Shown: positions 9,458 through 62,548 of the stretch, one piece after another
How positions within the stretch are numbered: position 1 is the first letter of the stretch
Layout: each line of letters opens with the position of its first letter
Source: an uncultured delta proteobacterium
GTDB taxonomy: Bacteria > Desulfobacterota > Binatia > UBA9968
NCBI GenBank assembly: GCA_963760795.1
Contig: CAVXEP010000004.1
Span: 230,233 to 294,232 of the forward strand
Length of the DNA: 64,000 nucleotides
Direction of reading: 5' to 3'
Translations under genes and position numbers: made by a program
The notes under the pieces: model-generated
The model's database searches: none
The model's input: the letters and a program-made list of their open reading frames with translations, nothing else
What the model was told of the DNA's origin: nothing

Positions 9458-9779
9458 TTCACCACGAAGGCACGAAGGACACGAAGGTTCGGAAATTACT
9501 TTTGTTAACTTCGTGCGCTTCGTGTCCTTCTTAGAAATTACATGTGAGAGGATGATATGCACAATGAAGAGCGTCCGGGCTCCGTCATGCCGGCGCAGGC
9601 CGGCATCCAGACCCATCATCCACCTGGATACCGTTTTTCAACGGTATGACGGACTCTGTCCGTCACCTGGATTCCGCCTGCGCGGGAATGACGAATCGAA
9701 AAATGAAGCAACTTCTAGGAATGCGAACCATGTTCATGGTCTGTAGGCGAGCGTAAGCTCATGGACACTTCGTGGTGAA
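9458..9779 (+). mobile_element. Nested element copy 1: CACGAAG palindrome + 237-bp insert (9531-9767) + REP hairpins
   Basis: CTTC at 9527-9530 and 9768-9771; insert ends shared with copies at 30001 and 40520. Confidence 0.8.
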
Positions 9780-29928: not shown

Positions 29929-30212
29929 GCCACGAAGGCAAGAATGACACGACGGTTGCGCATAATTTAAGCTCCGAACTTCGTGATCTTCGTGTCCTCC
30001 TTTGAAAATACCTGTAAGGCGATGGTCTCCCACAATGAAGACGTCACCTGGGTTCCGTCATACCCGCGAAAGCGGGTATCCAGGCTAATTGGCCGCAGAC
30101 CAAACCTGGATTCCCGCGTGCGCGGGAATGACGAGTCGAGCAGATGGAAGGAGTTCCAGCCATTTTCATTCTCCGTGGGCGTGCGTGAGATCATGATTCA
30201 CTTCGTGGTGAA
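29929..30212 (+). mobile_element. Nested element copy 2 (insert 30001-30200)
   Basis: CTCC 29997-30000 / CTTC 30201-30204; internal REP doublet 30056-30134. Confidence 0.8.
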
Positions 30213-40507: not shown

Positions 40508-40789
40508 TTCACCACGAAGTGTCCGTGAGCTTACGCTCGTTTACAGAATAGAAAATGGATGGGATTCCCTCCATAGCGATCTGCTTGACGCGTCATTCCC
40601 GCGCACGCGGGAATCCAGATTTGGCCTGCGCCCAATTAGCCTGGATACCCGCTTTCGCGGGTATGACGGAACCCAGGTGACCTCTTCATTGTGGAGACCC
40701 TTCTCTTACATGTATTTTCTATGAAGGACATGAAACTCCACGTAGACAAGAATGATTTCTTTGCGAACCTTCGTGTCCTTAGTGGTGAG
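40508..40789 (-). mobile_element. Nested element copy 3 (insert 40520-40722)
   Basis: GAAG 40516-40519 and 40723-40726; core nearly identical to the reverse complement of 30030-30145. Confidence 0.8.
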
Positions 40790-51424: not shown

Positions 51425-51515
51425 TTCACCACGAAGGACACGAAGAGCACGAAGGTAAGACAAAGACGTACGCATCGATTCTTTTTTACTTTAACTTCGT
51501 GCCCTTCGTGGTGAA
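51425..51515. repeat. CACGAAG palindrome (empty)
   Basis: TTCACCACGAAGGACACGAAGAGCACGAAG ... CTTCGTGCCCTTCGTGGTGAA. Confidence 0.85.
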
Positions 51516-61411: not shown

Positions 61412-62548
61412 ATGTCAGCAAACGCCGTTGAATCGTTCGTCGCGAGGATCATGGCCATCAGTGTGAATGCACTCCAAGGGATCATACGCATCGCCGTGAT
61501 CGTCGCCCTCGCTTATGTCGTCGTCAAACTAGTGCGCGCCACCTTAAGCCGATTTGAAACATTCCTGATCCGCAGCACGAGTTACGACGAGACCTATCCG
61601 GGCGCCGCCGCCAAACGCATCAAGACTTTGTCGAGCGTGCTCTGGACCATCAGCAGCGGGCTTCTTTGGTTTGTCGTGGTGTTGATCACGCTCAGCCAGA
61701 TCGGCGTCAACATCGGCCCGATCCTCGCCGGCGCCGGAGTCGTCGGCCTCGCCGTCGGCTTCGGCGCGCAGCATCTGGTGCGCGATCTGGTCAGCGGATT
61801 TTTTCTGCTGTTGGAGAATCAGATCCGCGTCGGCGATATGGCGATCATCAACGGCACCGGCGGCGTGGTTGAATCGGTCACCTTCCGCACCGTGGCGCTG
61901 CGGGATCAAGCGGGGGTCGTCCATGTCTTTCCCAACGGCTCGATCACGACCCTGGCCAACGCCACCATGGACTGGTCGGCTTATGTCATCGACGTCACCG
62001 TATCCTACAACGAAGATACCGACCGGGTCATCGATATCATGCGGCGGGTCGCGGACGACATGCGCAAAGAATCCGAATATGGCCGGGCGATGATCGAACC
62101 CATCGAAATTTACGGCGTCGACAACTTCACCGAGGTCGCCGTAACGATCAAGGCAAGATTCAAAACCCAACCCGCGCAGCAAAATACCATCGGCCGCGAA
62201 TATCGGCGCCGTCTGAAGAAAGCCTTCGACAGCGAAGGCGTCGAACTAGCCAACGCGCCGCGCCGCCCGGCCGCCAGAAGCGCGGCTCCGGTAGCGCCAC
62301 GTCATGAACTCGGGAATTTCACCACGAGGAAGCAAGCGCGACGTTGTCGGACAATTACGCAAACTAAGAACACAAATTCGGGAAGGACAGTTCACCACGA
62401 AGGACACGAAGATCACGAAGGTCGGAGACTTAACATCCGAAACCTTCGTGTCCTTCGTGCCTTCGTGGTGAAAAAACGTCTTCACCTTACGCGAACCGCG
62501 CATCCAGCATCTTCCCTCTTCCTATTTCCGGCAAAGCATGTAATTTAA
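61412..62548 (+). CDS. MscS family mechanosensitive channel (YbiO-like); C-terminus probably over-extended
   Basis: GAGVVGLAVGFGAQHLVRD, VGD, FPNGSI; the ORF tail runs through a repeat. Confidence 0.9.
   Translation: MSANAVESFVARIMAISVNALQGIIRIAVIVALAYVVVKLVRATLSRFETFLIRSTSYDETYPGAAAKRIKTLSSVLWTISSGLLWFVVVLITLSQIGVNIGPILAGAGVVGLAVGFGAQHLVRDLVSGFFLLLENQIRVGDMAIINGTGGVVESVTFRTVALRDQAGVVHVFPNGSITTLANATMDWSAYVIDVTVSYNEDTDRVIDIMRRVADDMRKESEYGRAMIEPIEIYGVDNFTEVAVTIKARFKTQPAQQNTIGREYRRRLKKAFDSEGVELANAPRRPAARSAAPVAPRHELGNFTTRKQARRCRTITQTKNTNSGRTVHHEGHEDHEGRRLNIRNLRVLRAFVVKKRLHLTRTAHPASSLFLFPAKHVI
62391..62472. repeat. CACGAAG palindrome (empty, best-conserved copy)
   Basis: TTCACCACGAAGGACACGAAGATCACGAAGG ... 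CCTTCGTGTCCTTCGTGCCTTCGTGGTGAA. Confidence 0.88.

Follow-up and report, generated by a model that had tools for sequence, protein, structure and literature searches.

The 64-kb stretch of DNA analysed here (the window) comes from an uncultured delta proteobacterium and contains three related inserts of 200-237 bp, termed copies A, B and C. Each of them interrupts a palindrome of tandem CACGAAG-type heptamers immediately before the outermost right unit, CTTCGTGGTGAA (Table 1). Two further palindromes of the same family are empty; both read ...CTTCGTG, one or two nucleotides (nt), CTTCGTGGTGAA. The three occupied junctions and the two uninterrupted ones lie just as an earlier, sequence-only reading of the window had described them. 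The outermost arms around copy A, at 9458-9469 and 9768-9779, show 100% complementarity over their 12 nt and lie 298 nt apart owing to the insert; the initial CT of the copy A CTTCGTGGTGAA unit is an overlap that is also present at the left junction. In our opinion, the insert is very probably a miniature, non-autonomous deletion derivative of an insertion sequence (IS) of the IS110 family. The observations behind this assignment are the termini, target and orientation common to the inserts and a full-length element, the loss of its gene and presumed RNA region, and the evidence for separate insertions.

Table 1. Positions of the occupied and empty palindromes and their parts in the window, and of Y1 transposase genes elsewhere in the genome
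Feature	Position	Strand	Remarks
Copy A host palindrome	9458..9530	+	three CACGAAG units (left arm), loop, two inner right-arm units, CTTC
Copy A CTTC left of insert	9527-9530	+	
Copy A mini-element, 237 bp	9531..9767	+	transposase-sense strand of the parent is the window minus strand
Copy A left module	9531..9582	+	first 9-13 nt are the reverse complement of the parent IS 3′ terminus
Copy A REP doublet (REPIN-like)	9583..9693	+	third REP hairpin in the spacer (inverted-repeat search)
Copy A right module tail	9726..9767	+	corresponds in reverse complement to the initial ~40 nt of the parent IS (5′ non-coding side)
Copy A outermost palindrome unit CTTCGTGGTGAA	9768..9779	+	right half of the target
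Copy B host palindrome, degenerate	29930..30000	+	ends in CTCC (29997-30000)
Copy B mini-element, 200 bp, variant-end subfamily	30001..30200	+	
Copy B outermost palindrome unit CTTCGTGGTGAA	30201..30212	+	
Copy C host palindrome, degenerate	40723..40788	-	ends in CTTC (40726-40723)
Copy C mini-element, 203 bp	40520..40722	-	
Copy C outermost palindrome unit CTTCGTGGTGAA	40508..40519	-	read 40519-40508
Empty palindrome, family of the host palindromes	51425..51515	not assigned	
Empty palindrome, three units per arm	62391..62472	not assigned	
Y1_Tnp (IS200-like) genes	G000 C9:1600-1926, C25:48409-48738, C25:43983-44156		two with long C-terminal extensions

The mini-elements form a family in this genome, the assembly of which (G000) comprises 6.58 Mb in 35 contigs and is 88.9% complete. 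Profiles of the insert ends gave 19 left-end and 28 right-end matches (nhmmer), among which 17 left-right pairs are spaced 130-186 nt; no pairs at greater spacing, up to 20 kb, were found in this genome. Together with four copies recognised by the right end alone, this gives 21 copies of 184-237 bp, which were aligned. Both ends are present in 19 of them, the left end being unrecognisable in the other two, and the right module stands against the outermost unit in all 21. In each case the insert separates the final heptamer unit of a CACGAAG-type palindrome from the one before it, and its orientation never varies. The fixed relative orientation claimed from the window thus holds for every copy in the genome, and the ends lie mostly in CACGAAG palindromes, not outside them. 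The right flank is exactly CTTCGTGGTGA in 16/21 copies, one letter off in four and degenerate in one. The tetranucleotide to the left of the insert is CTCC in 14 copies, CTTC in three, ATCC in one and ACGC in one; at 1-3 nt from this tetranucleotide, on its left, 11 copies have an exact CTTCGTG unit, and six more have a degenerate one there (the latter from flanks read by eye). It should be noted that two statements of the sequence-only reading need qualification here. Bounding by CTTC on both sides is correct in the window (with CTCC in copy B) but does not extend to the whole genome, where the left tetranucleotide is mostly CTCC; and the common asymmetric ends are real across the family, but the ends of copy B are a diverged variant of those quoted.

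No inverted repeat joins the insert's own ends (inverted-repeat search, copy A), and no open reading frame (ORF) is conserved among the copies, the longest stop-free stretch shifting in strand and frame from one copy to another; both absences had been recognised from the window alone. A MITE (miniature inverted-repeat transposable element) in the classical sense has terminal inverted repeats (TIRs) and a DDE-type target-site duplication, whereas the ends here carry no TIR and the flanking overlap is 2-4 nt only. The middle of every copy is occupied by a doublet of repetitive extragenic palindromes (REPs), that is, an inverted pair of REP hairpins. The alignment of the 21 copies distinguishes three doublet types, in agreement with the proposal that the GTCAT-REP doublet differs between copies. 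The same doublet occurs without mini-element ends at at least 14 other loci of the genome. Beyond its first 9-13 nt, the left module of copy A is common to mini-elements only (alignment).

The target is abundant: CTTCGTGGTG occurs 247 times in the genome, compared with about 15 occurrences expected. This excess, like the pairing of the insert ends, greatly exceeds what chance would give. Exact heptamers form 136 clusters with at least three units (79 of the 136 with at least two units on each arm; median span 72 bp), and 12 of the 136 clusters adjoin an insert.

A full-length counterpart was found in public genomes of the same lineage and of related ones. Matches to PF01548 occur in 20 of 31 genomes of the genus, and the right-end profile of the mini-elements matches three of 30 IS110 loci of the genus (E 5e-10, 1.6e-9 and 2.9e-9), each of which lies beside CTTCGTG units, with the junction seen for the inserts and in the same orientation. 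Thus, longer copies enclosing a gene, which are absent from this genome up to the spacing given above, exist in relatives and enclose an IS110 transposase gene. Read on the copy A strand, two inner right-arm units and CTCC come first, followed by TTCGAAAAT..., an opposite-strand transposase gene, a long non-coding stretch, a tail matching the right module and, lastly, CTTCGTGGTGAA. The full-length IS is 1537-1552 bp long, with a 5′ non-coding end of 242-246 nt and a 3′ end of about 30 nt, and it encodes a DEDD-type transposase of 421-425 amino acids (421 in L054). The transposase matches PF01548 (N-terminal DEDD domain, 1.3e-32) and PF02371 (C-terminal IS116/IS110/IS902 domain, 2.7e-18), and scores 289.5 bits against NF033542, "IS110 family RNA-guided transposase" (cut-off 140). 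The IS has no TIRs, its site and orientation are fixed, and it shows a short overlap at both junctions.

Junctions of the full-length IS were counted in 11 close transposase relatives with flanks from public genomes. The first three full-length loci, possibly identical records, were kept out of these counts; L055, which is one of them and was used in the Rfam scan of the IS 5′ end, in the searches of this genome and in the reading of the 5′ end, comes like L082 and L036 from the unpublished genome G004, and no conclusion depends on these three loci nor any claim on L055 alone. At the left junction, CACGAAG is followed directly by TG... in 10/11 copies, a diverged unit being present in the remaining one; the 5′ end of the parent thus abuts TTCACCACGAAG. 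The right junction (...AAGGAG) is visible in 9/11 copies, and in six of these nine a CACGAAG unit follows within 1-3 nt. The IS of L095 lies inside a complete palindrome with three units per arm. Public data contain thousands of close homologues of the transposase (at least 78% identity), nearly all on contigs of 1.3-3 kb; the few source names given are "Deltaproteobacteria bacterium" and "Candidatus Binatia bacterium".

Comparison with this parent defines what the mini-elements have kept. At the 5′ terminus, 20 of the 21 match IS positions ~4-42 with 84-100% identity and in the same orientation (blastn-short), while the same search of all 21 found no match to the IS interior. At the 3′ terminus, 11-13 nt are common to the IS and the mini-elements, CTCC-TT(C/A)GAAAAT, and the C/A polymorphism of TT(C/A)GAAAAT is identical in full-length copies and mini-elements. 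Where the parent has its bridge-RNA region and gene, the mini-elements have an interior of their own, consisting of about 45 nt and the REP doublet. A blastn search of this genome with the whole IS returned the first ~50 nt and the target only, and tblastn with two of the transposases returned no match; the mini-elements have therefore lost the gene together with the whole structured 5′ part. To judge from the sequence, they lack both the transposase and the presumed bridge-RNA region, so that both would be needed in trans. About 40 nt are conserved at one end of the mini-elements, compared with the about 20 bp that should suffice. The GAAG of the target unit is always retained at the left junction (transposase sense), and the right junction has GGAG in all full-length copies and in most mini-elements. 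The exchange point thus lies in the last two letters, which are AG in transposase sense and CT on the copy A strand. The proposal of a non-autonomous, site-specific IS110/IS1111-type element is borne out by a full-length IS that shares the junction, the orientation and both termini with the inserts.

The history of the insertions was assessed for six copies by comparison of orthologous sites in congeneric genomes. At the site of copy A, the palindrome is uninterrupted in G013, G006 and G041, the outer flanks being identical and the loop similar: these genomes read ...CTTCGTG, two letters, CTTCGTGGTGA, the corresponding order in the window being ...CTTCGTG, two letters, CTTC, insert, CTTCGTGGTGA. 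An unoccupied, degenerate palindrome is found in G003 at the site of copy C. Unoccupied palindromes likewise occur at C3:213233 in G040 (the closest relative, with 95% flank identity) and G003, at C32:186983 in G013 and G003, and at C16:82395 in G013. At the site of copy B, G040 and G003 have other sequence, so that this site is uninformative. Unoccupied orthologous palindromes at five of the six sites imply that the palindromes are older than the inserts; as far as the compared sequences tell, five of the six copies are separate insertions into resident palindromes.

These sites bear directly on an alternative, according to which an insert entered one palindrome once and then spread with it as a composite, or by homologous recombination or gene conversion, without any site-specific recombinase having acted on the mini-element. 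Module-wise comparison shows the copies to be mosaics, in which the closest partner is not the same copy for left module, REP doublet and right module, so that copies do recombine with each other. Moreover, the similarity of palindromes is weakly correlated with that of left modules (Mantel r 0.35, 0.016), which counts against wholly separate insertion, in that co-inheritance as a composite unit or gene conversion may have had a part. We nevertheless consider the alternative unlikely. The resident palindromes at the five sites are unoccupied and have similar loops; homology to the right of the insert extends over only 12 nt (CTTCGTGGTGAA); the junction is exactly that of the full-length IS; and the left arms of some copies are degenerate or missing. 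The single ancestral insertion spread as one composite, which the sequence-only reading had named as the outcome contrary to its proposal, is thus not what the orthologous sites present.

A further arrangement occurs at the copy A ortholog L024 (G002), in which the left arm of the palindrome is followed by a REP doublet, the right tail and CTTCGTGGTGA. The left module and the inner right-arm units are absent, and the locus arose either by deletion or through another insertion.

The closest known parallel to the mini-elements is MITEPpu9, a MITE-like element derived from the IS110-family member ISPpu9 in Pseudomonas putida KT2440; it forms minicircles, contains the small-RNA gene ssr9 and is present in eight copies, five of them linked to the IS (Nucleic Acids Res 2025, PMC12288879). 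Both elements are gene-less, bounded by the two end regions of an IS and devoid of TIRs; MITEPpu9 adjoins its IS or stands alone, inserts into repetitive extragenic palindromes and depends on the IS transposase. Unlike MITEPpu9, the present element carries a REP doublet, occurs as 21 dispersed copies in several mosaic subfamilies, resides in a different phylum-level lineage and uses a target palindrome with three heptamer units per arm; no cognate IS was found in its assembly. Minicircles were observed for MITEPpu9, whereas the present element is known from its sequence alone. Since MITEPpu9 was published in 2025, the family described here adds to a known kind of element and does not constitute a new one. 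No other IS110-derived miniature families beyond MITEPpu9 were found in a literature search of limited terms.

The abundant small RNA carried by MITEPpu9 (PMC12288879) raises the question of whether the insert has been retained for a non-coding function (as small RNA, promoter or terminator for neighbouring genes) and lies in a palindrome only incidentally. The short distances of 12-57 nt between the copies and adjacent ORFs would suit such a unit. In our view this is very unlikely, because the orientation relative to adjacent genes is mixed, the interior varies between subfamilies, an Rfam scan of copy A gave sub-threshold chance matches only, and neither a promoter nor a terminator consensus was seen at the one junction scanned (L089). 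The mixed orientation also led us to reject a promoter or leader role.

IS110/IS1111 members that target REPs are documented, among them ISPpu9, ISPpu10 and ISPa11 (PMC12288879, PMC11208160). The parent IS resembles these three in its use of one position and one orientation in a repeated extragenic palindrome; it differs in that its target is a tandem-heptamer palindrome of about 72 bp and no classical REP or bacterial interspersed mosaic element (BIME). The primary survey of REP-targeting members is reportedly that of Tobes and Pareja in 2006.

For the mode of movement, IS621 is instructive, because a donor of 22 bp recombines when its bridge RNA is provided in trans (Durrant et al., Nature 2024, PMC11208160). 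The parent IS and IS621 have in common two transposase domains, a long 5′ non-coding end, a short 3′ end, no TIRs, a two-letter overlap at both junctions, and a fixed site and orientation. The bridge RNA of the parent IS, unlike that of IS621, is predicted only and has no Rfam match. The overlap of the parent IS is AG in transposase sense; the IS621 core is CT. Since a 22-bp donor is enough when the bridge RNA comes from elsewhere, a mini-element consisting of ends only could move in the same manner.

By analogy with these systems, we infer mobilisation in trans, guidance by a bridge RNA and a circular intermediate. The parent IS inserts one way, with the outermost heptamer unit of a CACGAAG palindrome on one side and the second unit on the other, and a two-letter overlap remains at both junctions (AG in transposase sense, CT on the window + strand for copy A). 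What the mini-elements keep of the IS, ~40 nt at its start and ~11-13 nt at its end, would be the donor sequence flanking this overlap. A full-length copy would supply the recombinase and the bridge RNA in trans, as the IS621 analogy suggests; recombination would then take place between the joined ends of an excised mini-element, acting as donor, and the palindrome junction, acting as target. The 21 copies would have arisen by separate insertions into resident palindromes, and recombination between copies would afterwards have shuffled their modules. A natural head-to-tail arrangement is found in L089 (2170-2330), where an IS 3′ end, the AG overlap, a second copy of the ~40 nt at the IS 5′ end and a REP doublet follow each other in the chromosome; no clear second 3′ end was found downstream of this junction. 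Among public runs, all available as short contigs, none contained more than 0.36 of the sampled words; the four that were compared with the sequence contained neither a joint skipping the insert nor a circle junction, which says nothing on excision. The repeats are heavily covered in these four runs, and a few contigs cross the filled junctions of copy A.

The 5′ non-coding end of the parent IS is the presumed source of the bridge RNA. Its distal 160 nt are nearly invariant, and the consensus is predicted to fold into a closing stem and two stem-loops with internal loops, in which two pairs show compensatory changes among nine sequences. The 3′ side of the first loop holds an 8-9-nt copy of the target unit, while the 3′ side of the second has 8 nt that repeat the IS 3′ end and the overlap. 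That a bridge RNA guides the element is suggested by membership in the IS110 family together with this architecture; the assignment of the two words as guides in the modelled fold is suggestive only.

Several findings weigh against the derivation of the mini-elements from this IS or against their guided movement. Covariation in the 5′ end is confined to the two pairs mentioned. The two guide-like words are statistically weak: the target-like word was reached by 79-337 of 5000 mononucleotide shuffles, and the donor-like word by 298-362 of 5000. None of the 5′-side guides expected from the IS621 model could be placed, by eye or with shuffles, and Rfam gave no matching family for the IS 5′ end, only sub-threshold chance matches. 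No sigma-70-like promoter was called across the head-to-tail junction of L089. At the IS 3′ terminus, the common stretch of 11-13 nt is all there is, and blastn-short gave no significant match. The left palindrome unit is absent in 4/21 copies (C27:11630, C5:39439, C17:10457 and C20:56643; flanks read by eye). The two most similar whole mini-elements are 96.5% identical and most pairs far less so, giving no sign of very recent bursts. Finally, this assembly yielded neither a cognate recombinase nor its bridge-RNA region in the searches of its sequence: to the failure of the tblastn search mentioned above is added that the sole IS110-family gene of the genome (C32) has unrelated ends and an unrelated host repeat, and it was rejected as parent on these grounds. 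The suggestion that the recombinase is encoded elsewhere is accordingly upheld by the full-length IS of relatives but not by a gene in this assembly. Given the incompleteness of the assembly and the location of the homologues on short contigs, the absence of a cognate IS is not established; short IS contigs are usually left unbinned, which makes absence from an assembly weak evidence.

The C32 gene itself (C32:23000-26200, L001) lies, together with a small upstream gene, between two copies of a ccctcgcc..gggagaggg... repeat, and in other congeners a ccccacctctttcctcc...gggggagactttctatgagg repeat adjoins its homologues. IS110 lineages other than this one thus abut other repeats, as judged from the flanks of nine loci, for several of which the frames picked were wrong.

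The REP doublet inside the mini-elements invites comparison with REPINs, families of REP doublets that are said, in work attributed to Bertels and Rainey, to be mobilised by RAYT transposases. As in REPINs, the interior is an inverted pair of REP hairpins that is also found alone at many loci; unlike in REPINs, the doublet is cargo here and not the mobile unit. No RAYT flanked by these REPs was found in the genome. A related possibility is that the insert is a relic of a single-strand transposon of the IS200/IS605 or REP/RAYT type, placed 3′ of a tetranucleotide by a Y1 (HUH) transposase. The absence of TIRs, the fixed orientation, the constant short word at the left and the REP doublet inside the insert would all suit such an origin, and three Y1_Tnp genes are present in the genome. 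We regard it as extremely improbable all the same: the ends are dissimilar and have no similar subterminal hairpins, and an IS110-family element has the same ends and the same target. As mobilisers, Y1 transposases and TnpB were rejected, since the Y1 genes are not flanked by REP doublets or heptamer palindromes and no TnpB was found in the genome.

Descent of the mini-elements from an IS110-family parent matters because elements of this family are RNA-guided "bridge" recombinases under development for genome writing. Natural derivatives without transposase and without RNA indicate that the need in cis is a few tens of bases around the joined ends, and the mini-elements suggest, by analogy, that the system may work in trans in the wild. 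With 21 copies in one genome and a genus-wide presence in soil bacteria, they offer a data set on donor tolerance, trans-mobilisation and the carriage of passengers, which includes diverged donor ends, mosaic modules and another mobile repeat as cargo. For annotation, a recurrent 200-bp intergenic repeat is explained, and the palindromes are recognised as places where an insertion sequence lands, one that fragments metagenome assemblies.

The palindromes themselves vary among close species. Orthologous intergenic sites contain different palindrome families despite 90-95% identical flanks, as seen when window positions 9458-9779 and 51425-51515 are compared with L019, L021, L025, L030, L039 and the G040/G003 stretches. 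The swapped families have one architecture, with tandem heptamers in each arm and a ttcgga-type loop, and units CGCAAAG, CGCAGAG or GGAGTG in place of CACGAAG. In six more distant congeners, the same sites contain 8-15 bp only. The loop of the orthologous copy A palindrome is reverse-complemented in one species (L022 compared with L023 and L027), like a flipped hairpin loop, and G000 and G003 differ in this way at C3:213233 too.

A paralogous IS110 transposase with 48% identity is found in L086 (G008:C2), where the element, at 900-1010, ends in ...ATGTATTTTCATAA followed by GAG. It abuts units of a CGCAGAG palindrome, in a position equivalent to that in the CACGAAG palindromes, and its 3′ end is closer to the left end of the mini-elements than the 3′ end of the main IS is.

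We tentatively raise the possibility, which we hold to be doubtful, that the genus contains co-diversifying IS110 lineages, each matched through its bridge RNA to one heptamer palindrome family (CACGAAG, CGCAGAG, CGCAAAG or GGAGTG). Mini-elements with diverged donor ends would then have been moved by partly mismatched guides, and this machinery might also be what spreads the palindromes or swaps them. If this were true, repeats and RNA-guided recombinases would evolve with or against each other, and the genus would hold a natural record of bridge-RNA reprogramming.

Other repeats share parts or the position of the mini-elements. A sister repeat at G000 C14:47938-47976 and C33:57475-57513 has in common with them only the right tail of about 40 nt and a CTTCGTGGTGAA-like unit; its interior differs (a module of about 70 nt), and the left module is absent. 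Another module, of about 45 nt (...ttggttgcg...gccgcg(c/t)tagg..), lies directly before a solo CTTCGTGGTGAA unit at G000 C2:39147 and C2:150519, in the left flank of C5:39439, in L166 (~1170-1215) and downstream in L095. A degenerate copy of CTTCGTGGTGAA sometimes precedes it, and the module may be an insert of another type that uses this position as well.

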